Shown here: positions 6,393-61,850 of the stretch, piece after piece
Numbering within the stretch: position 1 is the first letter of the stretch
Layout of the letters: every line of letters begins with the position of its first letter
Assembly: GCA_963720565.1 (NCBI GenBank)
Contig: CAVRFW010000007.1
Location: 56,404-120,403, forward strand
Reading direction: 5' to 3'
Length of the DNA: 64,000 nucleotides
Origin: Candidatus Bathyarchaeota archaeon
Lineage (GTDB): Archaea; Thermoproteota; Bathyarchaeia; Bathyarchaeales; Bathycorpusculaceae
The notes under the pieces: generated by a model
Told to the model about the DNA's origin: nothing
What the model saw: the letters and a program-made list of their open reading frames with translations, nothing else
The model's database searches: none
Position numbers and translations under genes: made by a program

Positions 6393-6693
6393 TTTTAGCA
6401 GCCCTTTATGTAAAGGGCTCATTTTGATATTTAATTCCTCGTTTGTAGACCTGTCTAGAAATAGAGTGAGAGTTAAGTCCAGTTTTGTGGACCAAGACAA
6501 GCTAACCAGTTATTGTCTGTAGTTTTTTGTAAGATGTGATTTTAGGATCTGAATGTTAAGTTTGAAAGCCAATAGAGGAGCGAAAAAGCAGGGATGGAAC
6601 CAAGGTAGCGGCAGCCACGCGCGCCAATAGAGATTTTTTGGAAGACAATTCCGTAAGGCTTAAAGATTGTTGCTGCTGAAAAGATTAGTTTTC

Positions 6694-7119
6694 TCAAGAT
6701 TCCGATTTCTTGCATTGATTGCAATAGGTGTGTATTTCCAAATGTTGCTCAATATGCGAGTGATTCAATTCTGCAGTTATTTGTGACATGAAATCCCGAA
6801 TGGTTAGTGATTCATAATTTTGTATCTTTGCGCAGTTCTTGCAGACGATGTTGATGTGGGGTGAAGTGTCTGGATCATATCTGGTGATTCCGTCACGAAA
6901 GCCCAGTTCTTGTAGCATTCCAATCTCTGTGAGCAAGTGCAGTGTCTGATAGACGGTTGCCAAGCTGAGGGTTGGATATTTCTTCTGCATTGCATGGTGG
7001 ATGTGTTCAACTGTTGGGTGTTCTTTGCTCGAAAGGATCAGTTCGCAAATCGCCAGACGTTGGGGGGTAACCCTGAAGTCTTTCTCATGTAATTTGGCGA
7101 TGAGTTGTTGAGTGTTCAC
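6694..7119 (-). CDS. Fur/PerR family transcriptional repressor
   Basis: RVTPQR, HPT, SLATVYQTL, HINIVCKNC, CNQC motifs; divergent from catalase. Confidence 0.92.
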   Translation of the reverse strand: MNTQQLIAKLHEKDFRVTPQRLAICELILSSKEHPTVEHIHHAMQKKYPTLSLATVYQTLHLLTEIGMLQELGFRDGITRYDPDTSPHINIVCKNCAKIQNYESLTIRDFMSQITAELNHSHIEQHLEIHTYCNQCKKSES

Positions 7120-7178
7120 AGTTACTAACTGTGAACTAGGTTATATAAAATGTTTTGTAAGAAATAAGAATACTTAAA

Positions 7179-7193
7179 TAATAATGATTACAT
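7179..7193. promoter_or_regulatory. Per/Fur-box-like 7-1-7 operator
   Basis: TAATAAT-G-ATTACAT between the divergent Fur/PerR gene and catalase; resembles the Bacillus Per box TTATAATnATTATAA. Confidence 0.5.
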
Positions 7194-7235
7194 CTTTGTT
7201 ATGAGTTAAAGTAATAGGGAATGGAGATAGTGAAA

Positions 7236-8684
7236 ATGGAGAGCAAAAAACACTTGACAACCGACCAAGGCGTGCCGGTCACTGACAATCAAAACTCTTT
7301 AACCGTCGGTGAACGCGGTCCTGTCTTGCTGCAAGATGTTCAATTTATTGAGAAGATGGCTCATTTTGATAGAGAGCGTATCCCCGAACGAGTTGTTCAT
7401 GCCAAGGGGGCAGGAGCGCATGGGCATTTTCAAGTTTATAGAAACATGGCGGCCTACACCAAGGCGAAGTTCCTTCAAGATCCAGAGAAGAAAACCCCTG
7501 TCCTAGTAAGGTTTTCAACCGTGACCGGAGGAAGAGGCTCAGTTGATACTGCGCGAGATCCCCGGGGATTTGCCGTAAAGTTCTACACTGATGAGGGTAA
7601 CTACGACTTGGTCGGAAACAATCTGCCCGTGTTTTTCATCAGAGACGCTATCAAGTTCCCTGATATGGTGCATGCTTTTAAGGGTGAGCCTGATAGCAAC
7701 ATCCCGTCTTCTTCCTCTTCACATAACAACTTTTGGGAATTCATCTCTTTGACTCCTGAATCCACACACATGATCATATGGCTCTTTTCAGACCGAGGAA
7801 CCCCGAAAAGCTACAGGATGACCGAGGGCTTTGGTGTTAACACCTATGTCTGGGTGAATTCAGAAGGAAAGCGGGTTTATGTAAAATATCACTGGAAGCC
7901 GAAATTGGGTGTGCACAATCTTGACCGCCATGAAGCAACTAGGTTGGCGGGTGCCGATCCTGACTATCTGTCTCGTGACCTTTGGGATGCTATCGCCCGG
8001 GGTGAAGAGGTTGAGTATGAACTCTGCGTCCAGCTGATGGAAATTGAGGATGAATTGAAGCAGGATTTTGACCCACTGGATCCGACTAAAACCTGGCCCG
8101 AAAGTAAATTCCCACTCATGCCGGTTGGGAAAATGGTGTTGAATCGGAATCCCAGGAACTTTTTCGCTGAAATTGAGCAGGCGGCTTTCTGTCCAGCCAG
8201 TATTGTTCCAGGAGTAGACTTCTCAGCGGACAAGCTGCTTCAGGGTCGAACGTTCTCATATGCGGATACTCAGCGTCACAGATTGGGACCCAACTACCTG
8301 CAGATCCCTGTGAACCGTCCACTTGTTGAGGTCAACAACAACCGGCGCGATGGAGCCATGCAAATGGAAACTTACAGTGGTCGCGTGAATTATGAGCCCT
8401 CTACACTTGACGGCGGATCCCCCGTGGAAGCTCCGTCAGGAACCGCTTCCGCCTATTCTGTTGAGGGAGAGGTGGCCAAGAAGAAAATCAGTAAAACCAA
8501 CGATTTCCAACAAGCACGTGAGAAATATCTTTCCCTGAGCAAGATGGACCAGGAACATCTCGCCGATAATCTAATAGCCGATCTGACCCCTATCGAGAAA
8601 CAAATCCAGCTGCGAGCCATCGCGAATCTGACTAAGGCGGACCCGGAGCTCGGCAAAGCCGTGGCTGAGGGCTTGAAACTCTAA
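7236..8684 (+). CDS. katA: Monofunctional heme catalase (small subunit)
   Basis: FDRERIPERVVHAKGAG active-site signature and RTFSYADTQRHR heme-ligand signature. Confidence 0.97.
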   Translation: MESKKHLTTDQGVPVTDNQNSLTVGERGPVLLQDVQFIEKMAHFDRERIPERVVHAKGAGAHGHFQVYRNMAAYTKAKFLQDPEKKTPVLVRFSTVTGGRGSVDTARDPRGFAVKFYTDEGNYDLVGNNLPVFFIRDAIKFPDMVHAFKGEPDSNIPSSSSSHNNFWEFISLTPESTHMIIWLFSDRGTPKSYRMTEGFGVNTYVWVNSEGKRVYVKYHWKPKLGVHNLDRHEATRLAGADPDYLSRDLWDAIARGEEVEYELCVQLMEIEDELKQDFDPLDPTKTWPESKFPLMPVGKMVLNRNPRNFFAEIEQAAFCPASIVPGVDFSADKLLQGRTFSYADTQRHRLGPNYLQIPVNRPLVEVNNNRRDGAMQMETYSGRVNYEPSTLDGGSPVEAPSGTASAYSVEGEVAKKKISKTNDFQQAREKYLSLSKMDQEHLADNLIADLTPIEKQIQLRAIANLTKADPELGKAVAEGLKL

Positions 8685-8738: not shown

Positions 8739-8867
8739 TCGCAAAAACCATCGTTAATCAGACGCAACAGGAACATCCTTAAATGAATCAACCTAGTCCA
8801 TCGTTTTTTTGTTTCCGCGCGCCAAGAATAGGACACTAATGCAGAGAAACTGCGGGGTCATTTTATT

Positions 8868-16924: not shown

Positions 16925-17389
16925 CTAAGTGGGGAACGTACCTTGCAAACCCGTTACCAATGCATCAGTCCAAACGGGTGTAATAGCCCACCATTCGATT
17001 GGAGAACCAGCATATTCCAATCTGAAATCCAGTCCCAAAGACATCCCACCCGTGATTCCTGTAAAATCGTGAAATGCATCTATGGCATAGCCTCTGACAT
17101 AGCCTTCTGTGTTAGTGGCAATTATGTGGAGAACTGCGTTGTAAGCTATGCTTTGCCCAGTGTTGTTTACGAAACCGTAAATGTGAAGTGTATAGGGGAC
17201 GTGCGTTCTATCGTCTTCCACAGTTAAACCGTCAATAACAATTTTTGGGTTCTTGTCCGTTTCACTTTTTAAGTCAGCTATCTGTCTGTCCTTATCGGCA
17301 ATCACTGATGCGTAATAAGCTGCTAATCCGCCTGTTGTAATGATGAAGACGAGACAAGCTGCAAGTGTTATGGATATTTTTCTGTTCAA
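16925..17389 (-). CDS. Hypothetical single-pass membrane protein (start uncertain)
   Basis: N-terminal TM, short coiled coil and beta-rich domain; ORF track 16925..17485. Confidence 0.65.
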   Translation of the reverse strand: MNRKISITLAACLVFIITTGGLAAYYASVIADKDRQIADLKSETDKNPKIVIDGLTVEDDRTHVPYTLHIYGFVNNTGQSIAYNAVLHIIATNTEGYVRGYAIDAFHDFTGITGGMSLGLDFRLEYAGSPIEWWAITPVWTDALVTGLQGTFPT

Positions 17390-17471
17390 GGCTTTTCCCT
17401 CTTCAAAATCCCTGCTTAATATTGGGGGATTTATTGGTAAAAGTTTTTGCATTAAGGTGAAAGCGCGCGCA

Positions 17472-17567
17472 ATTACCTTATTCATCGGCTCCGTTATCGC
17501 TGTTGTGGCTGTTGTCTGCTTGGGTTTGCTGGTTTACTTCAAGAAATACACGCATCAGGCATCATAA
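17472..17567 (+). pseudogene. Orphan EPFPT-family anchor tail with no upstream gene body
   Basis: TLFIGSVIAVVAVVCLGLLVYFKK encoded by the conserved tail DNA, beginning directly after GCGCGCGC at 17463-17470. Confidence 0.8.
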
Positions 17568-21425: not shown

Positions 21426-22883
21426 ATGAAGAAAACAACATTAGCACTCTCTCTTATCTTGATTACTCTCTTCTCAATAGCCAATTTCGAACTGAAAGAT
21501 TGCGTTCCGCCCATCACACGGGCTGCCACAGTTTCTAGCTCGTATCCAGAAGGGCCACAATTATTATGGAACAAGACAATCTCAGCGTGGAACGAGACAG
21601 CTGGGCAATACACCCGTTCGTTTGCTGGGGAAATCATTCAAGCAAGCGATGGAGGCTACGTTGTCGCCGGGGGATCCAACGGATCATCCAGCGGGGACTG
21701 GTATGATTGGTGGCTCGTCAAGACCGATTCAAACGCAAACGTAGAGTGGGAGAAGACTTTCGGCGGCCCTTACCGAGATTTTGCCCATTCAGTCATTCAG
21801 ACTAGTGACGGTGGCTATGCGGTCGCAGGCACAATGAATGATAAAGCTACAGTAGTGAAGACAGATTCAGCAGGCAACACCCAGTGGAGCCGAACCTACT
21901 CCAATGGCACCAACGTTAGTAACTACGCTTCAATTATCCAGACAAGCGATGGAGGCTACGCCATAGCGTGTGACGACTGGGACCGTCCCACATACTTCAC
22001 GTACTTTGGCCCCCCATCATATCTCCAACTTATCAAGATCGACGCGTCCGGGAATGTAGAGTGGAACAAGACCTATGGAACGGGAACAACGCGTTCAGTA
22101 ATTCAAACCAGCGACGGCGGCTACGCATTATTCGGCGACGACTCAAGAACAGGTTTAGTGCTAATCAAAACTGATTCGCTAGGCAGACAAGAGTGGACAA
22201 GAACATATGGAACCACAGATGACTACAGTCTTTCAGTGGTTCAAACCAGCGGAGGTGCATTCGTTCTTTTTGGTATGCTAACTGTAGACTGGCGCGGACC
22301 AGGCCTAATCAAGACCGATGCAGAAGGCAACGAATTGTGGGCGAAGAATTACCTGCGCGAGCGCGCAATACCTTCCGATATGGTTGGTACACGGGATGGC
22401 GGCTACATTTTCTGCGCGACTGAAGATTGGACAATAGAAGAGGGAGACGTCTTTTTTGAGATCGTCAAGGTTGACTCCGAAGGCAACATTTCATGGGTAA
22501 TCAGCCTTGCAGAGGGCAGTGCAGGCATGTCCGTGGTTCAGACATTCGACGGAGGATATGCACTGCTGGAAACCCGCACCCTCATTGATTATCAATCTTG
22601 GGAAGACTATTACTCTGCTGTTTGGATCATAAAAACAGAAAAGACTTCCTCCGATCCAGCACCCACCTTTGCTCCAACATCAACTCATTCACCAGAACCC
22701 ACAACAACTCCAACATTAACTGCTTCTCCAGAACCAATGTCAACTCCAAGTCCAGAACCAACACAGGAACCTGATCCTTTCCCAACAACATTAGTCAGCG
22801 GATCCGCAATCGCAGTAGTTACTGTTGTCTGCTTGGGTTTGCTGGTTTACTTCAAGAAACTCCGCAGGCTCAAGAGTGCATGA
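21426..22883 (+). CDS. Beta-propeller (QTSDGGY repeat) surface protein with DPFPT anchor
   Basis: Repeated VIQTSDGGY...KTDSxGNxxWxKTY blades; PT-rich linker; conserved tail. Confidence 0.88.
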   Translation: MKKTTLALSLILITLFSIANFELKDCVPPITRAATVSSSYPEGPQLLWNKTISAWNETAGQYTRSFAGEIIQASDGGYVVAGGSNGSSSGDWYDWWLVKTDSNANVEWEKTFGGPYRDFAHSVIQTSDGGYAVAGTMNDKATVVKTDSAGNTQWSRTYSNGTNVSNYASIIQTSDGGYAIACDDWDRPTYFTYFGPPSYLQLIKIDASGNVEWNKTYGTGTTRSVIQTSDGGYALFGDDSRTGLVLIKTDSLGRQEWTRTYGTTDDYSLSVVQTSGGAFVLFGMLTVDWRGPGLIKTDAEGNELWAKNYLRERAIPSDMVGTRDGGYIFCATEDWTIEEGDVFFEIVKVDSEGNISWVISLAEGSAGMSVVQTFDGGYALLETRTLIDYQSWEDYYSAVWIIKTEKTSSDPAPTFAPTSTHSPEPTTTPTLTASPEPMSTPSPEPTQEPDPFPTTLVSGSAIAVVTVVCLGLLVYFKKLRRLKSA

Positions 22884-30222: not shown

Positions 30223-30443
30223 ACCACTTTAGAGCTACGCAAATACTCAAACCTGCGTTTTAACGAATTATAGGATTCTTTCCAAAACAGCTGGAGTTTT
30301 ATCTGCAGTAGTATCCCAACTTTTCTGATTAGCTTTCTATCTCGCGGGTACCCGCTTTACCAGCGCTGGCGAAACACATGGGTAGTGGAGACGTCTCCCG
30401 CCACACCCTTTTTCCGATACAAAACGCGCGCTTCTTGTTTTCT

Positions 30444-39439: not shown

Positions 39440-40359
39440 TCTCGCAGTTTTCTCCCGGTTAGCTTTAGGAAGACGTCTTCCAGGTTGGCGACGCGAATGC
39501 TCATTGGCATTCCTGGAAATTTGCGGGTTATTCTCTCGAAGCTGCCATGCGGTTGATTGGTGAATATTCGGATTTGGTCATTGTAGATTTCGATGTGTGC
39601 GTCGGGCAATTCTTCTTTTAGCAGTTTCAGTGTTGTTTCGTCAAATTGGAGTTCTAAAACTTCTTCGCCCGCGTGTTTCTTTACGAGGTTTTGAGGTGAG
39701 CCTTTTTCGATTATTTTGCCGTTGTCTATGATTAGGACTCTGTCGCATAGGGCGGCTGCTTCTTCCATGTAATGAGTGGTTAGGATTATTGTTACGCCTT
39801 TTTTCTTTAGGGTTCGGATTTGGTCCCATACGATGTGTCGGCCTTGCGGGTCTAATCCCGTGGTTGGTTCGTCTAGGAGAAGAAGTTGGGGCTCGTTAAT
39901 CAGTGCTCGTGCCATGATTAGGCGTCGTTTCATGCCTGTGGACAGCTGCTCTATTGACTTGGTTTGTTTTTCTTCGAGTTGAAAGAACTTCAGCAGGTCC
40001 AGGGCTCTTCTTGTAGCTTCAGTCTTTGGCATGTCAAAGTAGCGCGCGTAGACCTGTAGGTTTTTGATGACGTTGAAGTCTGGATCGAGGTTGTCCTCTT
40101 GAGGAGCGACGCCCACGATTTTCTTTATGTCTCGAGACTGTGTGGAAGCGTCCATCCCGGCTACGCTCAGTGAACCTTCAGTGATGGGTAAGAAGCAGTA
40201 GATCATTCGCACGGTGGTGGTTTTTCCTGCACCGTTTGGTCCTAAGAATCCCACGCATTCTCCCCTATAGACTTCAAAATTTATGTGGTCCACGGCCACG
40301 AAATCATTGAATTTCTTTGTGAGATTCTGAGCGGCTATAACGACTTCTGAAGAATTCAT
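39436..40359 (-). CDS. ABC transporter ATP-binding protein (NodI/DrrA-like)
   Basis: GPNGAGKTT, LSTGMKRR, LLDEPTTGLD, TTHYMEEA. Confidence 0.93.
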   Translation of the reverse strand: MNSSEVVIAAQNLTKKFNDFVAVDHINFEVYRGECVGFLGPNGAGKTTTVRMIYCFLPITEGSLSVAGMDASTQSRDIKKIVGVAPQEDNLDPDFNVIKNLQVYARYFDMPKTEATRRALDLLKFFQLEEKQTKSIEQLSTGMKRRLIMARALINEPQLLLLDEPTTGLDPQGRHIVWDQIRTLKKKGVTIILTTHYMEEAAALCDRVLIIDNGKIIEKGSPQNLVKKHAGEEVLELQFDETTLKLLKEELPDAHIEIYNDQIRIFTNQPHGSFERITRKFPGMPMSIRVANLEDVFLKLTGRKLRE

Positions 40360-40540
40360 TTCCGTTCACATGGGCAATGCTGGAGACAACTTGAACTTAC
40401 TCTCTTGCCGAAGGCTGATTTATAGGTTTTTGAGACGACACCTTTGAGTGTTTCGGGCACGGCGAGTGATAATCGTCACAAAGCCTTGGGCTAGCCAAGA
40501 GTAGCATGCGCGCGCTCTTGATTGGTTGGGTTAGAGTCTG

Positions 40541-41173: not shown

Positions 41174-41453
41174 TGATCAAACATCCCAGGAGAGCAATTT
41201 CAACCACAGATTTAAGAAAGTTGCCCTGCAAACGCCGCCAAACTCTACCTTCGTCGGCGAGTTGGCCTTGCCAGCGAAAGGTTTTGATAAAAAGGAAGAG
41301 GCGAAAAACAAAATCGCAGAGTGGTGCAACACCCTCAAAATAACGTAAAGCGCTGACTTTTTCATAGCGCGCGTTTCCAACACTTGTTATTGTAGTAGTA
41401 CAACCACATTTGCTTAATACCGAGAATACCCCTAAGCCTATCGGTGAAGAAAG

Positions 41454-41798: not shown

Positions 41799-41800
41799 AC

Positions 41801-42702: not shown

Positions 42703-42722
42703 TGCTAGGCGCGCTAAAATCC

Positions 42723-43088: not shown

Positions 43089-43815
43089 AACTGTTTCCTT
43101 CGGACCAATGTTTTACGGCTTCCGCCAACTGTGTAAGGTAAGACGGACCTAAAGACTTTTACTATGCCGTCCATGATGAAGACCACACATTGCATTTCTA
43201 AGAACGAGCAACTAAGCGCGCGCGCCAAACGTGCATATCACCTGTCCAATTGCTTTTTTGCATTTATCAACAAGAAGTGAACTCATACATTTGATTTCCA
43301 TGTTTAATTATAAAGAATTTTCTATAATGATTAGTATTTGGAATTATCGCCATGAATAATGCGTATCCCTTCCCTCGCAGGGAAAGGGTAGTGCGTATCA
43401 TCTGATACGGGATAGGGTATGACGCACCTTCTGGAACGCATACCCTTGCGTCATCGCTATGCCCTCTGAATTATAGCAAGGGCACCTTTTTCCATACCAT
43501 AGTGAGTTTTGTGTGTGTGTGCACTAAAATTTAGTCCAACCAACCAATTTCAGACCAGTAAACGCGCGCCAGAAAGCACAATGAAAAGCGTATACAGGGT
43601 TCAGAGCATAGGTATTTTCAGTGTCTCAGGAAAAGGGTAGGGTAACTATTCTCAGATCAGTATAGGGATATAGTATATAGTCGGAATCGAGTATACGGCT
43701 ACATTTTGCAGAAGATAGATATTAAAGCGCGTGTTAAGTCGCAGAATAAACTTCTTTTTTGCCAGGTGTTCGATTCCAAAATCCCTTAAATAATGGAGTC
43801 AACAAAATAATTCAC

Positions 43816-46666: not shown

Positions 46667-46668
46667 AT

Positions 46669-46917: not shown

Positions 46918-47090
46918 GTTTGACCACCAAGGTCAAAGCAAATCACTCCCGAATACTTAAACTTTTCTTAAAAATCAGAAAAATCTGAATATTCTCCATT
47001 GTGTTGACCTAATCGATGACCACAGACAGGATGAGGAGACAATCCCGAAGCTGAACGTGCGCGCTAAATCAATCCTCTCGTGTGAGAAAG

Positions 47091-48065: not shown

Positions 48066-48230
48066 TGCCTTTGGCAGAGTGCAAGGTTTCTCGCTGTTTG
48101 GATTTAGCCTGTTGGGCTTTATGCTTTGTTAACTGCGGATTCAGTTTCTGGGGCGTTTAGACTCGATATTAAAAGCTACTTAGCGCGCACTTAGCACTTG
48201 GCGACCGTTACGTCGGATAGAAAAATTGAG

Positions 48231-48356: not shown

Positions 48357-48707
48357 TTTTCTAAACCCTAAATTATTACGTCGCGAGAGTTAATATAAGC
48401 GAAATTTCTAAATGAGAACATATCAAAAATCGAAAGCTTGTTTTTGAGACTTTTTTCCATGGCGCACGCGAGTGTTGGTGTAAAAAGTAATGCGTGCTTA
48501 TTTCATGCTGGAAAACCTTTTATTCTAAGCCTTCTTCAAGGTATAATGGGGAGAAGAAGGGGTGGAGAGCTCGCCAATTCTTCGCGGGATTTGGCTCGCG
48601 ACGCGTTGCACCCTTTCTTTTTTCCACTTTTGACGCGCTTGCTTTTCTAAGCCGGTTATCCAGAATTCATAAGTGTTTTAGAATCGAACCCTTGAAGCTA
48701 TCATGTT

Positions 48708-49190: not shown

Positions 49191-49310
49191 CTTCCACCGC
49201 TCATATCACGTGCAGAAGATGGGGGAATAGGATTCTGGAATATTGTTTCTCCGTTAAGAAATTTTATATTTTTATGAAGAATAGCACTTTTCTGAATCGC
49301 TTGTGATACC

Positions 49311-49472
49311 ATGGTTGAATATGTCAGGGGAAGCGAGATTGACAATTGGCACCGATGCAAGAACTGCACCCAATACCCGCGCTATATTTATCAGAAGACC
49401 ACTGCTAAGCCGCCTTCTAGGCTCTGCGAACAGTGTGAATTGAAAGTTAAAAACGGAACTGGCAAATTCTAG
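49311..49472 (+). CDS. Small zinc-finger-like protein (53 aa)
   Basis: My translation MVEYVRGSEIDNWHRCKNCTQYP...LCEQCELK...; TTTATAT promoter-like sequence upstream. Confidence 0.6.
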   Translation: MVEYVRGSEIDNWHRCKNCTQYPRYIYQKTTAKPPSRLCEQCELKVKNGTGKF

Positions 49473-49548
49473 TTGACTCTGGAAAAGTGCGCTTTAGGAT
49501 GATTCCGGTTTACTAGGCGCGCGCCCTCCAAGCGGTTCTTACTATTGT

Positions 49549-49959
49549 CTAAAACCCGTATTCAATTCCCATCAATTTCAAGACAGTCAAGGGTCTGAAA
49601 AAGAAGACTACAAAGTAGGGAGTAACCATGATTTCCGTGCAGTCTCCCCAATCACTTCCCCAATAGACGCCTCCTACATTCGGGGGGAAGCTGCTGCTTC
49701 CAGGCGTGCCCACTGTATTGGTAGTTACCATGTTTGAAATCGGGTCGTATTTGAAATTAAGGGTCTTACCACTGATGGTTACGCTTGCCGTTTGTCCAGC
49801 AAGAACTACCAGCACCCTACAGTAAGGAAGTGCCCAAACCGGAGGAATTGACAAAACCAGAGGAAGTGCCCAAACCGGGATTCCAGATGCGGAAAACAGC
49901 ATCGAAACCGTGAGTCCTGCGAAAAGTCCAAGACTGAGGGATCTCTGGTTAGGCTTCAT
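49549..49959 (-). CDS. Hypothetical secreted/membrane protein
   Basis: 136-aa ORF with hydrophobic N-terminus and an internal 18-bp direct repeat. Confidence 0.5.
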   Translation of the reverse strand: MKPNQRSLSLGLFAGLTVSMLFSASGIPVWALPLVLSIPPVWALPYCRVLVVLAGQTASVTISGKTLNFKYDPISNMVTTNTVGTPGSSSFPPNVGGVYWGSDWGDCTEIMVTPYFVVFFFRPLTVLKLMGIEYGF

Positions 49960-50268
49960 TGAAGATCACTGGTTGAAGTTGGCAGGTTTGCATAAGAATT
50001 TTCTGAAGCACAAGTACAGAATGCTGTCTGAGGTCTCAATATGGACTAATAGTTTAGTTTGAATCGAGTATACGGTTTTTTGATGGTTGTTTCTGTTCTA
50101 TTTTCTCAGCTTTAACGAGTAGTTCTTGTTGTTGGCAATTTCGTTCAAGAACGAATGCATAACTTCAGGCTTTTTTTTAATAAGCATAAGTCTTAAATTG
50201 TGTTTGATTTCATTATTTGAATGTACACTGTGATGTGTACTATACTTGTAGGAGAAGGAAATTAGCAA

Positions 50269-52848: not shown

Positions 52849-53157
52849 AAGCTTGAGAAGACACAGATCTTCTCTTTCCCCTTTTTTAGTACGCAATAAA
52901 TCAGTCAGTTGTAGTCGTCTTCTGATTTTTTTGCGGGACGACTACTTCCAGTTAACGTTGTGCCTATCGAAACAGCAGCTGCGGAAAAACGAAGGCGTTC
53001 TTGAAGAGCTCAGGCATTAAACAGACAAGTAGAAGAAAAACGGTAGAAAACAGTTGTTGCTCTTGTTTTTCTTCTTCTATTCTAGCGGGCGAATATAGGT
53101 AGGAAAACCTTAGTACTTTAGATGCCTATCTGTTGACATTCAGGATGGTTAGTTGAA

Positions 53158-54006
53158 GTGCAGAAGCTTGAGCTCCGGGAATTGAGTGCTGGGTACGGAT
53201 CGGAAGAGGTTATTCATAAAATTAGCCTTAAGATAACTGAGCCGTCGATCTATGTTGTCCTTGGACCCAATGGGGCGGGGAAAACTACTCTTTTTAGGAC
53301 AATATGCGGTATTCTGAAGCCGTTTTCTGGTCAGGCAACGTTTGATGATGCTGATCTTTTCGAGTCCAAAGAGGCGCGTAGAAGGTTGGCTTATCTTTCG
53401 CATCTGAATGCGCTCCCGGAGGAGATGACTGTGTTCAAAGCGTTGAAGTATTATGCTGATATCGAGGGCGGAGACGTTGAACATGTCCTTGATGTTCTCA
53501 ACTTGAACGATCTTAGGGACAAAAAGTTTTCGTCGCTTTCGCAGGGACAAAAGAAGAGGGTTTCAGTTGGCAAGATCCTCCTCAGGGAAAGAGATATGTA
53601 TCTTCTTGATGAGCCAACTTCTAATGTTGATCCGAAGATTTCCAGAGAACTCAGAGAAATACTCGTCAAGCTTAGTATGGACAAGTTCGTTCTTTATTCG
53701 TCGCATAATCTCTATGAGGCAAGAGAGATTGGCAAGTACCTGATATTGATCAAGAATGGGGAGCTCAGGTTTTTTGACAAGATGGAGAATTTGAGAACGG
53801 GACAGTATCGTGTAGGCATCAAGACTCTCAATGACGTATCAAAGTTGATGCCGGAAGCCGTGTTTGAAAATGGGTATTACGTTAAGACTGTTAATGGCCC
53901 GCAAGAGGTTGCAAAGATTGTTCGCGATCTTGTGCAGGAAGGCGCTGAAATCGTGGAGCTGCGCGAGTTGGATAATCCGTTGCAGGAGTTTTTTGAGGAG
54001 GAGTAA
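53158..54006 (+). CDS. ABC transporter ATP-binding protein
   Basis: GPNGAGKTT, LSQGQKKR, LLDEP, SSH. Confidence 0.92.
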   Translation: MQKLELRELSAGYGSEEVIHKISLKITEPSIYVVLGPNGAGKTTLFRTICGILKPFSGQATFDDADLFESKEARRRLAYLSHLNALPEEMTVFKALKYYADIEGGDVEHVLDVLNLNDLRDKKFSSLSQGQKKRVSVGKILLRERDMYLLDEPTSNVDPKISRELREILVKLSMDKFVLYSSHNLYEAREIGKYLILIKNGELRFFDKMENLRTGQYRVGIKTLNDVSKLMPEAVFENGYYVKTVNGPQEVAKIVRDLVQEGAEIVELRELDNPLQEFFEEE

Positions 54007-54008
54007 AG

Positions 54009-54713
54009 ATGAGTTTTTCGCAAGTTACGAGAAAGAGAAGTGTGGGACTCAGCAAAACCTACTTCATTTTAGGCCTAGTAATGACTGTCTACGGCGTCAT
54101 CTTGTCGAATGTCTTAACGTTGATTCCTGAGGATGCTGGAAACATGGGAGGCACTCCTGTTGAATTGCTGAATAGTTTTCCTTTCTTGTCAGTGGCTTTC
54201 CTATCGCTTTCTGCCCTGCTTTTTTCGCTGCCTGTGGTGATGCTGTTTGTTTACGACAAGAACAATGGAGTGCTGGAGTACCTTCTTTCGACCGGCCTTG
54301 ACCAGCTTGACATCTTTAAGGGATATGTTAAGGCTGCATTGTCGCTGGCGGCTTACCTGCTGGTCTTCGCGGTTGTGTTTAACACGGTTTTCGGAGTTTT
54401 TCTGGGAACCAGTTTGACGTTGTTGGCTGTGATGGCTGTTCTCACGTTTGTTATTGGCATGTCAGAGGTTTTTCTGGTTACTATTTCGATGATGGCTTTT
54501 AGTTCGCTTCAGAAAACGCCGATGGGTGCGAATCAGCCCTTGGGAATCATAGTCGGGATTGTTCCGATGTTTCCCGCGTTGATACTGCCGATGATATTTC
54601 CATTATACGCCGTGCTCATCGATAGCCTGATTGCAGCGATAACCTTACTGATTTCGCTAGCATTACTCATGTCCGTTGGTCGCCTCATCCTAAGAGAAAA
54701 ACTACTGCCTTAA
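54009..54713 (+). CDS. ABC-2 type permease
   Basis: Six TMs; DK.NGVLEYLLSTG motif; adjacent to ATPase. Confidence 0.8.
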   Translation: MSFSQVTRKRSVGLSKTYFILGLVMTVYGVILSNVLTLIPEDAGNMGGTPVELLNSFPFLSVAFLSLSALLFSLPVVMLFVYDKNNGVLEYLLSTGLDQLDIFKGYVKAALSLAAYLLVFAVVFNTVFGVFLGTSLTLLAVMAVLTFVIGMSEVFLVTISMMAFSSLQKTPMGANQPLGIIVGIVPMFPALILPMIFPLYAVLIDSLIAAITLLISLALLMSVGRLILREKLLP

Positions 54714-54857
54714 GAGGCGCGCGCCGCTGCAGACGATCTTCTTAGTCTTAGCAAAAGGAGTAAAGGTGGCGCAGAATAGAATAGCAAAATCTTTTGAGGA
54801 TTTCTGTTAAAAGTTGTTGTTACGGGTGAAAATTGCTTGTAACAACAACTACTTGTT

Positions 54858-55620
54858 TTAGGAGCTATGCGTGGTTTCCCATTTTGTTTGGCAGTCTTCG
54901 CACAGCCACACTGTTTCGTTCTTGAAGGTTTCGGCTTGACAGCAGGTCAGCTTGGTTTGACCGCAGACTCCGCACTGGGTGCCATCCATAGCCGGTGTTG
55001 CTCCAGTGGACACTTGCGAAGTCGTCAATTTTGTTTAGGTTTGATTCTTGGGTTTTTTCTGTTTTAGGCTCCTTGCATGTGGACATTTCGGTTTTTATCA
55101 TTTGGTTGTTGCTGTTTTCGTTTTCTAATCTTGAATTGGGCTGTGATGGCATCGGGACATGGGACCTTGTTGAGGTGTCGTTTCGAAAATTCGTGTCAGA
55201 GCGTTGTTCCGGTTGGGCTGCTGTGTCCTTTTCGTCCTTAGGGGGTTCTTGTTTTGGTGGGTAGTTGAATTTCAAGGGTATGCCTTTTGCTTGGGCGGCT
55301 GTCTCGACCGTGTTTATCCATGTTTCGAGGGCTTTTTGGTGAAACAGTCGCAGTAGTTGGATGTTTTGGAGGAGGTCCAGGTTCTCGGGTTCCTTCTGCA
55401 TCAGTTGGTACTGGTAGGTCTTGCTTTGGGTTTCCTCTTTGAGGTAGCCTGCGTTGGCTAGTGTTTTGAGCATGCGGTATGCGGTTTTGGTCGCGACTTT
55501 AAGTTTGGCGGCTACGTCGTTCTTGTTTAGCGATACGTCTGTATTTGTGAAGAGCCTGAGGGCTTCTTGCTGTCGTTTTTCGATGCGTGAAACAGTTTCC
55601 AGGAAAACAACGGTGAGATC
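54858..55620 (-). pseudogene. 5'-truncated gene with winged-helix and C-terminal zinc finger (frameshift near 54980)
   Basis: NDVAAKLKVATKTAYRMLKTLANAGYL wHTH; alternative frame CGVCG...LCEDC. Confidence 0.6.
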
Positions 55621-55626
55621 AGTCTT

Positions 55627-56064
55627 ATGTGGAGGTCCCAGTTCTACAACGGTCTAATAGCGTTGCTGGTTGACCAGGGACTGAATGATCCAGAAGAGGA
55701 AGAGAGAATTATTCCGGAAGGAAAAGTTCCCTTCATGACGGTTCACCAGGCTAAAGGATTGGAGTTCCCGGTGGTTTTTGTGGCAAGAATGGATGAAAAA
55801 GCGGACCCAGGAGGAGAACACCTTGTTGAGGACGAACTGAACCAATTTAGAAAGAACAAACTGGCTGTTTCAGATGTTCATCAGAAGGCACGTGAAGACC
55901 TTATTCGATTCTACTACGTTGCGTACTCGCGAGCCAGATATGCCTTGGTGTTGCTTCTTAAAGCTGACAAAATTGCTCCGGGAGAAGCGGAGGGCGAACA
56001 CATTAGTTTGGGCGGAAAAAATCTGAATTGGCTAAGACAGGAGCTAAAAATAACGGAGATATAA
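55627..56064 (+). pseudogene. C-terminal fragment of a UvrD/PcrA-type SF1 helicase
   Basis: MTVHQAKGLEFPVVFV (motif V) and R.YYVAYSRAR (motif VI); no N-terminal Walker motifs. Confidence 0.85.
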
Positions 56065-56066
56065 CA

Positions 56067-56990
56067 ATGTGGCAAGAATACTCCAAAATGAAGGTGTCTT
56101 CCAAACCAGAAGTGGAGACTCTCCCCAGATTCAGCTTAACCGGCGACATAGTAGCCCACAGGAGATGCCCACGGCAGTACGGTTTCTTCTCCGTTCGAGG
56201 CTTTGTACCAGCACACACCGTACAAATATTTTATGGGACGATAATTCACGAAGTCCTCGATAGAACACATCACCACTTCCAAGGTCTGAAACGACCCCCG
56301 GACTAAAGGAGAGATACCCACAAGCGAACACATAGAGGGCTATTTTGATGAAGTAGACAATGCGCTTAAGGCGCGTGGGATAAAGGCAATAACTAGAGAC
56401 CTGAAACAGAAAGCCCTTGAGACCTTGATACTCTTCAACCAGATTGAAGGACCTACGCTTTATCCTTTGGTTGTAGATACCGAACACCGAGTTAGAGGAA
56501 CTCGAGAGGTTGGGTACATAATGGAAGGAGTAGTTGATGTACTAGTCGGCCGAACACTAACGTTGAAAAAGGGTTTTCCGATCCATCCCAACTATAAATT
56601 TGGGACTACAAAGGTCAAAAAAGGCCCAAAAACGAAGCAGGTCTTGAATCATACATTTATCAAATGCAAGTCTACTGTGCACTATTCAAAATCAGAAATG
56701 GATGCTTGCCCAAAGCTGCTAAACTCTACTTCCTCAATGAGCTCCAAAACGAAAACCAAAGACCGAAAACCGCAATCTTAGAAGTGGAAATGTCGGATGA
56801 AAAAATAGCAAAAGCTCTCAGCGAATTCGACGATACAGCCGGAAAAATAATCCGAGACCGCGAAAGTCAGATATGGCAGGCGCCCACATGGCAACGCGCA
56901 AAAGACATGGTTGACACCTGCACAATATGCGACATAAGATGGAGCTGCAAGGCATGGCTGACAAAACCTTTCCCTATGCAATATCCGTAA
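56067..56990 (+). pseudogene. PD-(D/E)XK RecB/AddB/Cas4-like nuclease, multiply frameshifted
   Basis: CPRQY, GTIIHEVL, GVVDVL, Q...Y, C-terminal C..C.....C spread across several frames. Confidence 0.75.
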
Positions 56991-57028
56991 AAAAGAGGGC
57001 ACACTAAGACCTAAGTCTGGTTCCGGCG

Positions 57029-57166
57029 CTACTGAGTTTCATGGTCTAAATCGTCTACTTCAATCTGGTAGCATTCTTCACACAAACCGCCAAACGTACA
57101 GTAGTCCTCTTCAGTGATGGTCTTTCCACAACTGCCGTATTCATAAACCTCAGGTTTGGCACTCAT
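57029..57166 (-). CDS. Small acidic Cys-rich (zinc-finger-like) protein, 45 aa
   Basis: My translation MSAKPEVYEYGSCGKTITEEDYCTFGGLCEECYQIEVDDLDHETQ*. Confidence 0.5.
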   Translation of the reverse strand: MSAKPEVYEYGSCGKTITEEDYCTFGGLCEECYQIEVDDLDHETQ

Positions 57167-57313
57167 CTACATCAGGTCTCCGAACATGCTGTCGGATTCC
57201 TCGGTTAGCTGATCGTCCCAGCATTCCCAGCACATGCCCTCATGTTCTTCATGCTCTTCTCTGGTGATTTCCATTCCGCAAACTTCGCAGTGATAACTTT
57301 TCTCGCGACTCAC
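57167..57313 (-). CDS. Small acidic zinc-finger protein, 48 aa
   Basis: My translation MSREKSYHCEVCGMEITREEHEEHEGMCWECWDDQLTEESDSMFGDLM*. Confidence 0.55.
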   Translation of the reverse strand: MSREKSYHCEVCGMEITREEHEEHEGMCWECWDDQLTEESDSMFGDLM

Positions 57314-57601
57314 TTCCACGTTATACCTCGACCCGGGTTATTATGCACCAATTTTAACATGATATATCATAATCTTTTTAGTTTTATGAAAGACTGCTCA
57401 ATCACATATCGAGAATTTCTAAATGAGGACTCCCCGTTTATCCTGCTTGCCAATTGGCCGACGTTGATTTGGGATTCATAAAGTCTTTTTCGTCAAAACT
57501 CCTTAGTCCATATGAAGTGTTCCATATAGCTTCTCCAGGGAACCTGCGGCGTATACTATCTCAGTTAGTTACGCTTTCAAATAGTATGGGACGATTGAGC
57601 G

Positions 57602-58123
57602 TTGAGGGACTATACAACTGCATGTAGCGCTTGTGGAGAGAAAGTGCTACTTCCTTACAAATGTTGGAGCTGCGAAGGTTCGTATTGTTTCCAGCACAGT
57701 CTACATGAAAACCACAGCAACATGAAACCTACCGCGCGTGTAGGAATCAGCACAATTCCGAAAGAAATCAGGGCAAAAGAAACCAAGACTATTCCCCATA
57801 AAGACAGAGACAAAGCGGAAAAAACTATGAGACTGGGTCTTACACCTGTGCAGCCAACAAAGGGGAGAGAAAGGATTAAGGTTTGTCCTTGGTGCAGTCA
57901 TTCTTTGGAGAAGGTAAGAGTCAGAACGCGAGGAAAACTTTCCACATTCTGGACATGCCCTAATCGTAAAACCCACAAGAACATGGTTCGACTGAGCTTC
58001 AGAAAGAGCATTAATCAAACAGGTTCTGATTTGGAGGTTGTTTCAGACACCGAGAGAGATATTTACCGTGAAATAGAGAAAAACGCCAAAAAGGAATTAG
58101 CCAGCAAACGAGATCAATGGTAG
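57602..58123 (+). CDS. AN1-like zinc-finger protein
   Basis: CSACG...LPYKCWSC...YCFQH..ENH plus CPWC...WTCP. Confidence 0.65.
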   Translation: MRDYTTACSACGEKVLLPYKCWSCEGSYCFQHSLHENHSNMKPTARVGISTIPKEIRAKETKTIPHKDRDKAEKTMRLGLTPVQPTKGRERIKVCPWCSHSLEKVRVRTRGKLSTFWTCPNRKTHKNMVRLSFRKSINQTGSDLEVVSDTERDIYREIEKNAKKELASKRDQW

Positions 58124-58349
58124 ATATCCTCTGCAAAAGCACACACTTTAGCAACAGCTTGAAGAGGCCAATTGTGCTAAGTATAATTTTCATAATACAA
58201 CAGATTCGGTTAGCCCTTTCTCTTATTCCGGACCTCACTTTCTCAGTTATTCGCGCAGGCAAATTCTCGTTACAAGAAAAAATTGACCACAGAGCAGGAA
58301 AAACATAACTGCATCGCAATCCCAGTTGCATTCAGGACGCAAGAAGTAT

Positions 58350-59009
58350 ATGGCTTCAAAATACAACCTTAAGAATACTCGGAAAGAAGCCTTCCAAAAA
58401 GCAGTTATCGCGTTTTATGCTAACCGTGGGCGAATATATCCTTGGAGGCAATCAGTTGATCCTTACGAAATCCTGGTTGCGGAAGTGCTCATCAAACTTA
58501 CAGGAGCAGGCAAGGCGGAACCCGTTTACAGAAAACTCATTGCCATATATGGAGATCCAAAATTAATGTCCGAAGCAGATATCGGGGAACTGGAAGAGAT
58601 GATACGTCCACTAGGACTTATTAACAGGGCAAAAATGCTGGTTGACCTGTCTAAAACATTAGTCGAAAACTTCGAAGGGCATGTTCCGGAAGATTATTCT
58701 GCGTTGACAAGCCTGAAAGGTGTTGGGCGCTACACGGCAAACGCGGTCCTCTGCCTCGCATACGGAATCAGGGTTCCACTGGTAGACGAGAGCGTGAAGC
58801 GCGTTTTTGCAAGATGCTTGAATTTTCCATCTAAGAAACCAGCTCATATGGATGAAGGCCTTTGGTCTTTTGCCACGGGTCTTCTCCCGAAAAGAAAGGT
58901 CAAAGAGTACAACTTGGGGCTGATTGACTTGGGAGCATTGTTTTGCAAGCACTCCAAATCATCTTGCGTAGAATGCCCAGTAAATCTCAGTCCAAAGGCA
59001 TCCAGCTAG
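58350..59009 (+). CDS. HhH-GPD DNA glycosylase (MutY/Mig/endonuclease III family)
   Basis: PWR...PY.ILVAE, LKGVGRYTANAV, VD..V.R, C......C..CP (Fe-S motif missing its last Cys). Confidence 0.88.
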   Translation: MASKYNLKNTRKEAFQKAVIAFYANRGRIYPWRQSVDPYEILVAEVLIKLTGAGKAEPVYRKLIAIYGDPKLMSEADIGELEEMIRPLGLINRAKMLVDLSKTLVENFEGHVPEDYSALTSLKGVGRYTANAVLCLAYGIRVPLVDESVKRVFARCLNFPSKKPAHMDEGLWSFATGLLPKRKVKEYNLGLIDLGALFCKHSKSSCVECPVNLSPKASS

Positions 59010-59073
59010 TGGTTATCAAACGGATAGAGCATAAAATTTAAACTCGTTTCTTAATAGAATTAAAGTGACAGTG

Positions 59074-59592
59074 ATGACGCCAGAAAGCCATTCAATACAC
59101 AAGAAAATAGGCGACATATTCGAAAAGATGGTTTCCTGTAACTGATGCTGAACTCTGCTGCGAGACACAACATGCGGTGGAAAACAACGTATCCCGCTGT
59201 TTTGTTCACCCACGAAGTCACGAGCGACAAAATATTCCAACGTTGACATGCTCCTCCTGAAAAATGGCAAAATCAAGGTCATCGTGGAAATCGAAGAGTC
59301 TGATGTTAAGCCAACCCAAATATGTGGAAAACTTCTCACCTCAGCGCTAAGCAACTTTTACATCTATGAATCCAACGCAAATCAATCTATAGGGATGGCT
59401 GACTCCATTCTATTCATACAGATAGTTGATACTTCAAAGACCTTCAGAACCGAAGCCAAGCGTTCACAGTGGAAAACTCTGGAGAAATCAATAAACCACA
59501 TATTGCCAATAAAAGGCAGCAAGATAACGATGTATAGACTACTGACAACCGACGAATTGAATGAACTTGAGAACATAATCGAGAGAGCTTAA
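59074..59592 (+). pseudogene. Possible restriction-endonuclease-fold protein with two in-frame TGA codons
   Basis: VDMLLL...VIVEIEES resembles a PD-(D/E)xK core; reading frame continues upstream of ORF 59248 to ATG 59074. Confidence 0.45.
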
Positions 59593-59970
59593 CCCCTTAT
59601 AAGAACAATAACCAACTATTTCCACAAAACTCCAAATATCGTTCTGCCATAGAAAAAACAGAAACACCTCAGTCTCATGCACTGCTGTCGCGATTGCACC
59701 CATACATTCTGCGCGCACACTAGCTGAATTCAGAGGATTATGCGAAGCTTAGATGCGTAAGATAATTAGAAGTAGTAGACCCGGTGATATTTCTCGGGGT
59801 GACTACTTCTCGTAGCTCCAGAAAGCTGCTACCAGACGAGAGTATCCATGGCACCTACATTTTCTAAGCGCGCGTTCTTAAACGGCCTATAGTGAAAAAT
59901 GTTATAGCTGTACTTCAGAAATATACTTACCAACTTACAGGAGACACCCTAGCTGAAGACTCCTTGGATA

Positions 59971-60977
59971 TTGGTTGTTGTGATGCTCCTTGTCGGAATC
60001 TGCATTGTCACGATTTATTTTTATCATAAACCAGCTGAAAGCGAAGTTAATGTTTGCTTGCACTTATCGGACTATAACAATCAGACTATTTCGTTTCTTC
60101 TTGATCTGAGGGTTAGCTGGGTTAGAACTGACTGGACAACTCCTGACGAATCGATGAGAAATTACTCACAGGACCTTCAAGACAACAACATCAACCTCCT
60201 CGCCATCATAGACCACAAAACATTCGGATACCGAATCCCCACATTGGAAGAATGGAACAGAACCATAACGGAACTCGTAACTTCCGAGGACTTCAGAAAC
60301 ACAGACGCAGTTGAGATATGGAACGAACCAAACAGTGACTCGTTTGAATCATCCATTGAACCAGAAGTCTACTATGAAATGCTAAAGAGTGCATACGCAA
60401 TAATCAAAAACTACACAACAATTCCTGTTGTTTTCGCCGGAGTCTCACCAAATGTTCCTGGCTGGAAGACTTACTTGAGCACAGTCTTTGCTTTTGATGA
60501 CACGCAGGACTACTTTGATTACATGGGCATTCACTTGTATGATGACACGACAACAAATCTGGAACATTTGCAGTTTGTTAAGGCTCTAACGTCGAAGCCA
60601 ATTTGGCTGACTGAAACAGGGCAGCCGTCAGAAACAGATGGCTATACTGAAGCAACACAGGCCGAATATCTGAGGTCTGTGTACTCCACTCTTGAACCGT
60701 AGTTGACAAGATATTCATTTATGAGTTAAGAGACGGCAGGTGGGCACCCTTGAACAAGGAAAACTACTTCGGACTACTGACCCTCGAAGGAGCCAAAAAG
60801 GAAGCATACGACATAGTCTGGAAAATTAGTAGAAACCAAGAGAAAAGTGATCACTCCGTCATGTCTAATGTCTCGATGACGTTTAGACTCTTCCTGAGCC
60901 TGTTTCGGCGAAATAGAATGAACAATCGGATATTTTTAAGAAGGGCACGATCATTAAGCCCCTTTTTCATCAGCTGA
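59971..60977 (+). CDS. Clan GH-A glycoside hydrolase (GH5/GH39-like), frameshift near 60700
   Basis: EIWNEPN acid/base, GIHLY, IWLTETG nucleophile; ENYFGLL...K.AY in the next frame. Confidence 0.8.
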
Positions 60978-61107
60978 TCCTAGAAAGGTTCCACACATCT
61001 TTGAAAGCTATTGCAACAGAAGTATCTATAATCAAGTGTCAGACGAAATCGTATGCGTTCAACTTTTAAGCGTGTTTTGTGCATTATTGTGTCTTGGCGA
61101 ATAAGAC

Positions 61108-61626
61108 ATGTTTGAGGGTTCTTCGGAGTTTAGTCCGATTAACGCTAGTTTGCTGGTTGTTGTTCCTGGTGGCCAAACGAAGATCTGGAAGTTTGATCCG
61201 AAGCATGGTCCAGTTAAGGCTATGGACGCGTATGCGGGTTCGCCGTTCCAGGTTAACAAGGCTTTCGCCCAGCTTTTCAGTGACAGGTGGGTGATCTTGT
61301 CTGCAAAACACGGCTTCATGGACCCAGACTATATGATTCCCGGAGACTACGACGCGGCCTTCAAGAAGCCCCAGACAAACCCGATAAGCCTCGACGAGCT
61401 CGAAAAACAGGTGCAGGAGAAGAACCTGCGCGAATGCAACTTTGTCGTCGTGCTCGGCGGAGAAGAATACGTAGACATAGTAACCCGCCTCTTCCAGGGA
61501 CACAGCAAAGTACTAACTCCAACGAAGGATCCTGCGATGGGAACGGGAATGCAACGCGTAAAATCCCTCCTGAACATGTCAAGAGAAACAATGCTCAAAA
61601 CACTCACAACCCAAAACGAACCCTAG
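61108..61626 (+). CDS. DUF6884-like protein
   Basis: K.W...A.DAY.G..F, ILSAKHG...PD..I..YD motifs. Confidence 0.6.
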   Translation: MFEGSSEFSPINASLLVVVPGGQTKIWKFDPKHGPVKAMDAYAGSPFQVNKAFAQLFSDRWVILSAKHGFMDPDYMIPGDYDAAFKKPQTNPISLDELEKQVQEKNLRECNFVVVLGGEEYVDIVTRLFQGHSKVLTPTKDPAMGTGMQRVKSLLNMSRETMLKTLTTQNEP

Positions 61627-61850
61627 GAGAAAAAGCGCGTTCTTCCAGATCTCTTCAAGGTAGTCTTGGGCAAAATTCACAAAATTAGGAATCAAACTCG
61701 CTGCTTATCAGATATTCAGCCCAAGCTCACGCGTCTATGACGTATTTACTCAAGCGTTTTCAACTCGTCCTCAACAAAGAACGCATTCATGCCTTTCAGA
61801 ACGCCGAAGCCATCACTTTTCAACAAAGCCGCGCACTTTCTGGTGGAAAT

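Follow-up and report, generated by a model that had tools for sequence, protein, structure and literature searches.

What places the hexamer GCGCGC again and again between the genes of a Candidatus Bathyarchaeota archaeon? The question is raised by a 64,000-nt stretch of its genome (the window, G000:C7:56404-120403, where G000 denotes the 2.09-Mb genome of 13 contigs and 45% G+C to which the stretch belongs), in which an initial annotation had read the motif as the crossover core of an integron-like system that builds an island from one-gene cassettes. We find that the motif is real. It is specific to lineage and linked to the plasticity of the genome. It is best read as a short palindromic soft spot of the flexible genome and not as a recombinase site. 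The explanation that we favour, at somewhat less than even confidence, takes A(GC)nT tracts to be palindromic landing pads which insertion sequences and MITEs (miniature inverted-repeat transposable elements) duplicate, and which are left as solo scars in the flexible genome.

Throughout, a run is an alternating G/C tract of 6 nt or more (lengths of 6-11 nt were seen). Genes were called with our own crude codon-bias open reading frame (ORF) caller, which gave 2064 genes and 78% coding DNA, and every label of a position as intergenic depends on these calls. The main comparison was made with the congeneric genome G002, of which 1.497 of 1.513 Mb were covered. The two genomes share 1084 orthologues, defined as reciprocal best hits, with a median amino-acid identity of 79%; the nearest comparison genomes are ~77% identical to G000 at the DNA level.

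The window holds 23 overlapping matches to GCGCGC in 17 clusters, and none of 100 dinucleotide-preserving shuffles reached this number (7.06 +/- 2.93), so the excess over chance that had been claimed is borne out. The motif is not, as had been supposed, a feature of one island: the excess is genome-wide, and the window is only moderately richer, with 15 intergenic runs where the intergenic rate of the whole genome predicts 7.3 (Poisson p = 0.008). The density of runs per 64-kb bin is uneven along the genome (χ² = 67.8, 32 degrees of freedom, p = 2e-4). Among all hexamers of G000, GCGCGC has the highest ratio of intergenic to coding density (288 vs 177 occurrences, ratio 5.9), above all TATA-like words, and CGCGCG is second. 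Moreover, it is the most over-represented intergenic word compared with a first-order Markov model (observed/expected 5.07).

The genome contains 493 runs, 250 intergenic, 240 coding and 3 at contig edges. Between genes, the excess over a Markov simulation grows with the length of the run: 109 runs of 6 nt were observed vs 60.6 simulated, 69 vs 11.4 at 7 nt, 45 vs 2.8 at 8 nt, 20 vs 0.6 at 9 nt and 6 vs 0 at 10 nt. In coding DNA the runs are at or under expectation. The excess is limited to alternating G/C, i.e. AC, AG, GT and CT runs between genes are at the Markov expectation and AT runs are slightly above it, so general microsatellite slippage is not the cause. Purine-pyrimidine runs that lack (GC)3 show a mild excess, which is alike in core and flexible DNA. 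The congener G002 repeats the pattern, with an intergenic excess (25 vs 2.0 at length 8) and a coding depletion. No extended motif was found in the flanks of the runs. The bias is confined to the adjoining base, with A at -1 in 57% of cases, which gives the form A(GC)nT, and flank complementarity, 0.42 at +/-1, is at background (0.17-0.32) further out. A full-text literature search found no description of this pattern. According to the excerpted text of a published survey, prokaryotes generally suppress GC6 and GC8 patterns (PMC4060949), which makes the excess seen here appear unusual.

The evidence that ties the runs to plasticity comes from the comparison of spacers between the two congeners. 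Here, a spacer is called core if the orthologues of its neighbouring genes are adjacent or 2-3 genes apart in G002, and flexible if it is non-syntenic. The density of runs is 0.15/kb where the orthologues are adjacent (10 runs in 64.9 kb) and 0.16/kb where they are 2-3 genes apart (5 in 31.1 kb), and it rises to 0.57/kb where both orthologues are present but not adjacent (24 in 41.8 kb), 0.58/kb where only one neighbour has an orthologue (77 in 133.0 kb) and 0.77/kb where neither has one (131 in 170.3 kb). Pooled, the flexible spacers have 232 runs in 345.1 kb (0.67/kb) and the core spacers 15 in 96.2 kb (0.16/kb), a ratio of 4.3 (binomial p = 1e-11). Since the Markov expectation is ~0.17/kb, conserved spacers show no excess at all. 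In other words, the motif belongs to the variable genome, as had been suggested, and core spacers are not enriched to the same degree. The contrast is present in every class of spacer length (core 0.16-0.17/kb, flexible 0.66-1.0/kb), including spacers of at least 401 nt, where core DNA is at chance level (7 runs in 42.4 kb) and flexible DNA of the same length has 0.67-0.71/kb. The reverse comparison, starting from G002, reproduces the contrast (0.16/kb in syntenic spacers, 0.56/kb at breaks, 0.55/kb with one orthologue and 0.66/kb with none). Several runs counted as core intergenic actually lie inside missed genes, rRNA or tRNA, which means that the true core density is lower still.

The density within coding DNA is the same in orthologous and non-orthologous genes (0.144 vs 0.149/kb), so the excess is not a compositional signature of foreign DNA. 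No other hexamers tell flexible and core spacers apart as well as GCGCGC and CGCGCG do (z = 9.7 and 8.4, respectively). The forms that would result from their decay by transition, GCACGC, GCGCAC and CGCACG, are 2.1-2.6x enriched in flexible vs core spacers; the close variants listed in the initial annotation thus belong to the same phenomenon. Other 6-bp palindromes also differ between the compartments of G000: AGGCCT occurs 66 times in flexible vs 2 times in core intergenic DNA (7.3x) and TGGCCA 86 vs 8 times, and GCCGGC shows the opposite trend (28 vs 20).

The position of the runs relative to genes is not random. In G000 they peak 10-49 nt past stop codons (47 in 48.8 kb, 0.96/kb, vs 0.33/kb at 50-119 nt), so the closeness to stop codons noticed in the window holds genome-wide. 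They are scarce 0-19 nt before start codons (0.19/kb) and rise again 60-89 nt upstream (0.90/kb). The peak on the stop side and the depletion on the start side fit positions at which an insertion is tolerated. Tandem, divergent and convergent spacers have much the same density (0.47-0.61/kb), which makes a promoter-only or a terminator-only role unlikely; as there is also no composition signal at a fixed distance within 25 nt, both were rejected.

Homology between the congeners rarely continues across a run. In BLAST comparisons of 248 intergenic runs of G000 with G002, homology spanned the run in 14 cases and stopped within 8 nt of it in 16; for 744 random intergenic positions the respective numbers were 181 and 32. 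The 14 spanned runs are mostly in missed genes, rRNA or tRNA, and the run itself is usually not conserved there. At some runs the similarity halts exactly, e.g. at G000:C9:329,976, where identity is 95.6% up to the run, and at C4:26,641-26,750, where a 101-bp piece lies between two runs. A module of 250 nt (G000:C9:331916-332165) starts at a run (C9:331,904) and is 93.6% identical to G002:C15:13,482-13,731, which also starts at a run in an unrelated locus. It consists of a promoter with four short iterons followed by an ORF of ~52 aa, and in G002 it lies ~25 nt past the 3' end of a tRNA. The genes of the two species average ~77% DNA identity, and the module looks recently mobile. Nevertheless, the breakpoint effect at runs is modest genome-wide. 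The ends of high-scoring segment pairs (HSPs) between paralogues fall within 6 nt of a run about three times as often as the baseline in spacers (17/575 vs 1.04%, p = 1.5e-4), HSP ends against G002 are weakly enriched (13/762, p = 0.059), and only 1 of the 18 ends of the 9 blocks with at least 90% identity between G000 and G002 is at a run.

Some runs occur as close pairs. The spacing of run pairs in G000 peaks at 100-200 nt (19 pairs, vs 1 pair at 200-300 nt), and 28 pairs, including the one at 59711-59873 of the window, are at most 200 nt apart. One chain has 5 runs in 385 nt (G000:C13:20,688-21,073). A structured RNA closed by a GCGCGC stem was considered for these pairs and rejected: the segments between them fold no better than 50 controls (mean best-strand z -0.57 vs -0.59, p = 0.56).

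Mobile elements are found at some of the runs. Among the 800 flanks of 400 runs from G000 and G002 there is one sequence family, with 26 members, which reads (A/T)TGCyTGTTCC... inward from the run. It corresponds to the ends of a 1.08-kb element (G002:C13:164-1241) with terminal inverted repeats and with broken frames of DUF772 and DDE_Tnp_1, i.e. an IS5/IS1182-type transposase, and of a 164-nt MITE of which G002 has 13 full copies and G000 has 2. The copies of the element and of the MITE read A-GCGCGC-element-GCGCGC-T, with the same outer bases as solo runs. In other Bathyarchaeia, 6 of 10 loci of related transposases are bracketed by two runs 1,052-1,131 nt apart; their inner ends are inverted-repeat-like (13-16 of 18 matches), with a sequence unlike the repeats of the G002 element. 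The hot spot G000:C9:329976-338000 is a mobile-element graveyard, with 11 run clusters, IS110-like fragments (DEDD_Tnp_IS110, Transposase_20), IS5-like fragments (DUF772, DDE_Tnp_1) and MITE copies; a 15-kb stretch here has 20 GCGCGC matches vs 2.6 expected.

These arrangements suggest how the tracts may have spread. A(GC)nT tracts with n = 3-5 would act as landing pads for insertion sequences that seek palindromes. At least one family, the IS5/IS1182-like DDE element with its MITEs, would fill this role, and other small modules abut runs too. Insertion would leave a copy of the tract on either side of the element, presumably by duplication, and the tracts would multiply where mobile DNA is tolerated, namely between the genes of the variable genome. 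They would outlast an element that has been lost or has decayed, which may be the origin of most solo tracts, and would then erode through CpG transitions. Such a history would account for the restriction of the runs to non-coding and non-syntenic DNA, their positional bias, the outer bases shared by solo and element-flanking runs, the decay products and the way in which runs cluster in graveyards of elements. A precedent for the first steps is IS1272, a member of the IS1182 family: to go by the excerpted parts of the report on it, IS1272 targets palindromic or stem-loop DNA, some other IS1182 members target palindromes, and the authors' model includes a pathway that duplicates the whole palindrome at both ends (PMC5678879).

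A number of observations weigh against landing pads. Only 26 of the 800 flanks carry the transposon inverted repeat; 722 are singletons, so that ~90% are unique. In 22 of the 28 close run pairs the inner segment is single-copy with no recognisable element remnants (1 matches G002), and run pairs 40-3000 nt apart in G000 seldom enclose inverted-repeat ends (2 of 193 score at least 12, with 0.41 expected). Spacers with runs do not contain protein fragments more often (38/167) than those without (134/628). No clean empty site was found, as the orthologous G000 sites of 5 MITE copies of G002 are too diverged or otherwise occupied. The inverted repeat does not follow the runs across genomes either. 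In a tally of 21 genomes, its matches stood against GCGCGCGC counts as 13 to 39 in G002, 3 to 34 in G004, 1 to 88 in G000 and 1 to 4 in G012, and it had 0 matches in G001, G003 and G018, with GCGCGCGC counts of 16, 30 and 53, respectively. The class-wide sample comprised 151 Bathyarchaeia genomes, and 17 of them were classed as run-rich (at least 38 GCGCGCGC and at least 1.6x the reversed control word), by a criterion that is crude as it takes no account of G+C content, which was not given for the sampled genomes. A related transposase (E <= 1e-10) is present in 4 of the 17 run-rich genomes vs 24 of the 134 others, with 16 matches in G097 alone and intact relatives of 330-360 aa, and G000 has only broken pieces and no related transposase at this threshold. 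We note that metagenome-assembled genomes often drop repeated elements, which weakens such negative counts.

The strongest competitor of the landing-pad reading, which we regard as possible although unlikely, is that the tracts are not sought by mobile DNA but written. According to this proposal, a break-and-rejoin activity of some Bathyarchaeia, undescribed and independent of Ku, makes alternating G/C tracts de novo where DNA is joined: a (GC)n tail would follow one untemplated base, and since such tails are self-complementary, any two ends could anneal and be sealed, which would give A(GC)nT. Runs would then mark deletions, captures, insertions and rearrangements, and insertion sequences would merely exploit them later. 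Three observations are better explained in this way than by landing pads, namely the unique flanks on both sides of ~90% of the runs, the chains of runs split by short unique pieces, and the fact that G000 has the highest load of runs in the genus yet no intact transposase of the family. The restriction to non-syntenic DNA, the variable length, the outer A...T bases, the homology blocks that halt exactly at a run, the threefold enrichment of paralogue HSP ends and the poor conservation of runs between congeners also agree with it. On the other hand, no enzyme for such an activity was identified, neither gene fragments nor small indels within syntenic blocks are marked by runs, and the enrichment of HSP ends against G002 is weak.

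End joining was considered as a candidate cause. An operon of a LigD-type primase-polymerase, Ku and an ATP-dependent ligase (the latter with the start of a LigD phosphoesterase domain) is encoded outside the window at G000:C3:159757-162586 and was found in each of the 4 congeners searched; G010 also has Ku and the polymerase. The operon does not track the motif, however. Ku occurs in 37 of the 151 genomes, i.e. in 2 of the 17 run-rich ones vs 35 of the 134 others, G018 is run-rich without Ku, and G010 has Ku and few runs. Ku-dependent end joining is thus neither necessary nor sufficient, and Ku/LigD was rejected as the general cause. The runs of G018, which belongs to another family, are again intergenic (42 in 50.8 kb vs 0.14/kb in coding DNA), a density that is biased because the 238 kb sampled were picked for holding GCGCGCGC. 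They have T...A flanks, and there is no common flank family among 138 flanks.

We consider two further explanations improbable. The first one is a functional cis element, i.e. a Z-DNA-prone or protein-bound boundary or insulator that is selected between accessory transcription units. (GC)n is the strongest former of Z-DNA. The non-random position of the runs relative to genes would suit such a function, and runs upstream of orthologues are present in both genomes more often than expected (10 vs 3.96). The general suppression of GC6 and GC8 in prokaryotes, as far as the survey excerpt goes (PMC4060949), points in the same direction. A selected boundary is difficult to reconcile with the lack of an excess in core spacers of any length, with the similar density in convergent, divergent and tandem spacers, with a run length that varies and with the lack of conservation at aligned positions. 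Moreover, the excess of purine-pyrimidine runs that lack (GC)3 is mild and similar in both compartments, there is no RNA structure between paired runs, and the flanks differ by lineage (A...T in G000 vs T...A in G018).

The second one, to which we attach equally little weight, is a mutational by-product, i.e. slippage or hairpin-primed expansion that is specific to G/C and is tolerated only in unconstrained DNA. Expansion would produce the steep climb of observed/expected with run length, the lack of an excess in coding DNA fits tolerance, and decay products are common. However, core spacers of at least 401 nt do not exceed chance, in contrast to the 0.67-0.71/kb of equally long flexible spacers, other dinucleotide repeats are not expanded, and the distribution across lineages is patchy. 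A GCGCGC-type (BssHII-like) restriction-modification site was also considered and rejected: a C5 methyltransferase (PF00145) is absent from G000 and matched in 1 of 20 relatives, in a search that did not extend to N4/N6 methyltransferases.

The idea of one-gene cassettes came from the arrangement of the sites in the window, which is as follows.

6619..6624: (GC)3 run, between the start of a DUF7347 gene (6500) and the stop of a Fur-family gene (6694)
8817..8822: (GC)3 run, in the spacer of two convergent genes, for a catalase (stop 8684) and a CorA-like protein (stop 8868)
17463..17470: (GC)4 run, at the 5' edge of ORF 16925-17485 (-), whose true start probably lies downstream of the run
22361..22366: GCGCGC within a coding region
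30426..30431: (GC)3 run, 13 nt past the stop of gene 30444-31766 (-)
40042..40047: GCGCGC within the coding region of an ABC ATPase gene
40508..40515: (GC)4 run, 26 nt past the stop of a diphthamide-synthase-like gene and 149 nt upstream of an ABC operon
41367..41372: (GC)3 run between two divergent genes (starts at 41173 and 41454)
42709..42714: (GC)3 run, 9 nt past the stop of ORF 42723-43088 (-)
43216..43225: (GC)5 run, the longest in the window, ungapped in a near-identical metagenome contig
43564..43569: (GC)3 run in a region without a called gene
47059..47064: (GC)3 run, 27 nt past the stop of a PD40-repeat gene and 294 nt upstream of a methyltransferase gene
48183..48188: (GC)3 run, 118 nt upstream of the start of the PD40-repeat gene
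49517..49524: (GC)4 run, 25 nt past the stop of gene 49549-49959 (-)
54717..54724: (GC)4 run, 4 nt past the stop of gene 54009-54713 (+), with no run at this place in the G002 orthologue
59711..59873: pair of GCGCGC around a 163-bp single-copy segment, which lacks a terminal inverted repeat and does not fold unusually as RNA

Every GCGCGC position that had been listed is present. The statement that all but two of them lie outside genes stands for the most part: 22361 and 40042 are coding, as claimed, and 14 of the 17 clusters are intergenic, but 17463 falls inside the first 22 nt of the longest ORF at 16925-17485. All 13 close variants were found at the positions given for them or a few bases away, and all 13 are outside the gene calls. 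The gene content of the window is mixed according to Pfam, with secreted β-propeller, Kelch and NosD-type proteins, transporters, the Fur-catalase pair and small enzymes, and scans for tRNA and for Rfam families found no tRNA in it and no family at the gathering score. At 40506 and 48179, 1-4 nt before a (GC)n run, two short metagenome contigs end, which could reflect either an assembly break at the palindrome or strain branching at the run. The metagenome contigs over 40000-59999 of the window, mostly of 200-700 nt, revealed no decisive breakpoints. A search for RNA data on positions 40300-50000 found none.

Three other features of the window were noted in passing. An uncalled ORF of 66 aa with two CxxC pairs, resembling a small zinc-ribbon protein, lies at 43759-43959 (+); related metagenome contigs stack over this region (depth 20-44 in the bin 43335-44001), and it is probably a conserved small gene. 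The 145-aa ORF at 55627-56064 (+) resembles UvrD-like helicases in their C-terminal part alone (profile positions 264-345 of 350) and is probably a gene fragment. A single-copy match to a CRISPR repeat model at 43364-43399 is weak (21.5 bits where the gathering score is 39, E = 0.07) and is most likely due to chance.

As a description of the window, consecutive runs that bracket a single gene are real. Genome-wide, however, 33 genes are bracketed in this way vs 25.4 +/- 4.5 expected when runs are dealt randomly among flexible spacers by spacer length (p = 0.06), and only 181 of 1184 flexible spacers (~15%) have a run. Two gene fragments of the window had also been seen to end at such sites, but protein-fragment matches in G000 spacers do so no more often than chance would give: 10 of 60 sites are within 15 nt of a run, where the null is 0.157. 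Small indels in syntenic blocks, which are putative insertions of 1-3 genes, have a run at the junction in 3 of 64 cases in G000 and 6 of 96 in G002, although many of these insertions are probably artefacts of the ORF caller, and the matching 'empty' spacers show no enrichment of runs. The methyltransferase gene of the window has no consistent run across 80 metagenome loci, and in the 5 closest loci (78-81% identity) there is none within 150 nt of the gene ends.

The machinery of a cassette system is not apparent either. The initial annotation saw no recombinase in the window, and a Pfam scan of 59 window proteins agrees. Elsewhere, no recombinase tied to runs was found, the C9 hot spot having only the IS110-like and IS5-like transposase fragments, in an analysis that did not include a scan of the whole genome for PF00589; apart from ordinary insertion sequences and MITEs, no mobile agents were seen at runs. 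There is no conservation past position +/-1 and hence no attC-like imperfect palindrome at the borders of the runs. Known site-specific recombinases (integron attC, Xer/dif) use sites far longer than 6 bp. The link to the flexible genome, the single-gene brackets of the window and the promoter and small-ORF module that starts at a run at different loci in the two congeners are what a crossover core would predict, but with bracketing that is not significant, no conserved arm beside a 6-10 nt core of variable length, unmarked indels and no recombinase beside the runs apart from transposase fragments, we consider an integron-like assembly of islands from one-gene cassettes to be very improbable. 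The runs look like soft spots or scars where mobile DNA lands, not like joints of a new gene-cassette system.

The comparison with known systems places the runs among several partial relatives. Repetitive extragenic palindromes (REPs) and the bacterial interspersed mosaic elements (BIMEs) that they form number in the hundreds, lie in spacers, often just past stop codons, and are landing sites for insertion sequences. REPs are imperfect palindromes of 20-40 nt with a conserved sequence; they are found in the core genome and are associated with RAYT transposases. The runs are likewise short palindromes in spacers, often past stop codons, but they consist of 6-11 nt of alternating G/C, have no conserved arms and are restricted to non-syntenic DNA; the flank analyses found no REP-like, hairpin-forming imperfect palindrome of 20-40 nt at them. 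With integron attC arrays they share unrelated accessory genes, a variable order and a site close behind the stop codon, whereas an attC-like palindrome, an integrase and an array-wide orientation are missing, the 'modules' contain promoters, and the bracketing is not significant. HIP1 of cyanobacteria has a fixed length of 8 nt and is abundant within genes and genome-wide. As with HIP1, a short and G/C-rich palindrome is strongly over-represented in a particular lineage; unlike HIP1, the motif avoids coding DNA and core spacers and varies in length. The fillers and N-type additions of end joining are also short, non-templated-looking tracts at joints, and the genus encodes Ku, a LigD polymerase and a ligase, but known fillers are not a fixed alternating copolymer as the runs are, and Ku does not track the motif across the 151 genomes. 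Finally, the element found here, with DUF772 and DDE_Tnp_1, resembles IS1272 and the IS1182 family in that copies of a DDE transposase are located at palindromic targets. In the excerpted account, IS1272 replaces varied stem-loops and leaves no duplication (PMC5678879), whereas here one fixed hexamer flanks both ends of the element in several genomes and solo tracts outnumber elements by more than 10:1.

The most over-represented word between the genes of this archaeon shows no excess in its conserved spacers, which makes it a ready marker of archaeal genome plasticity. If the tracts are landing pads, insertion sequences would find safe sites in them and, by duplicating these sites, would build their own habitat. 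If they are written at joints instead, they would represent a DNA-joining chemistry new to science in a major uncultured lineage of sediments, and each run would be a scar that dates a deletion, capture or rearrangement in a flexible genome stitched together by runs. Under both readings, runs could serve to map gene flux in metagenomes of Bathyarchaeia and to date it.

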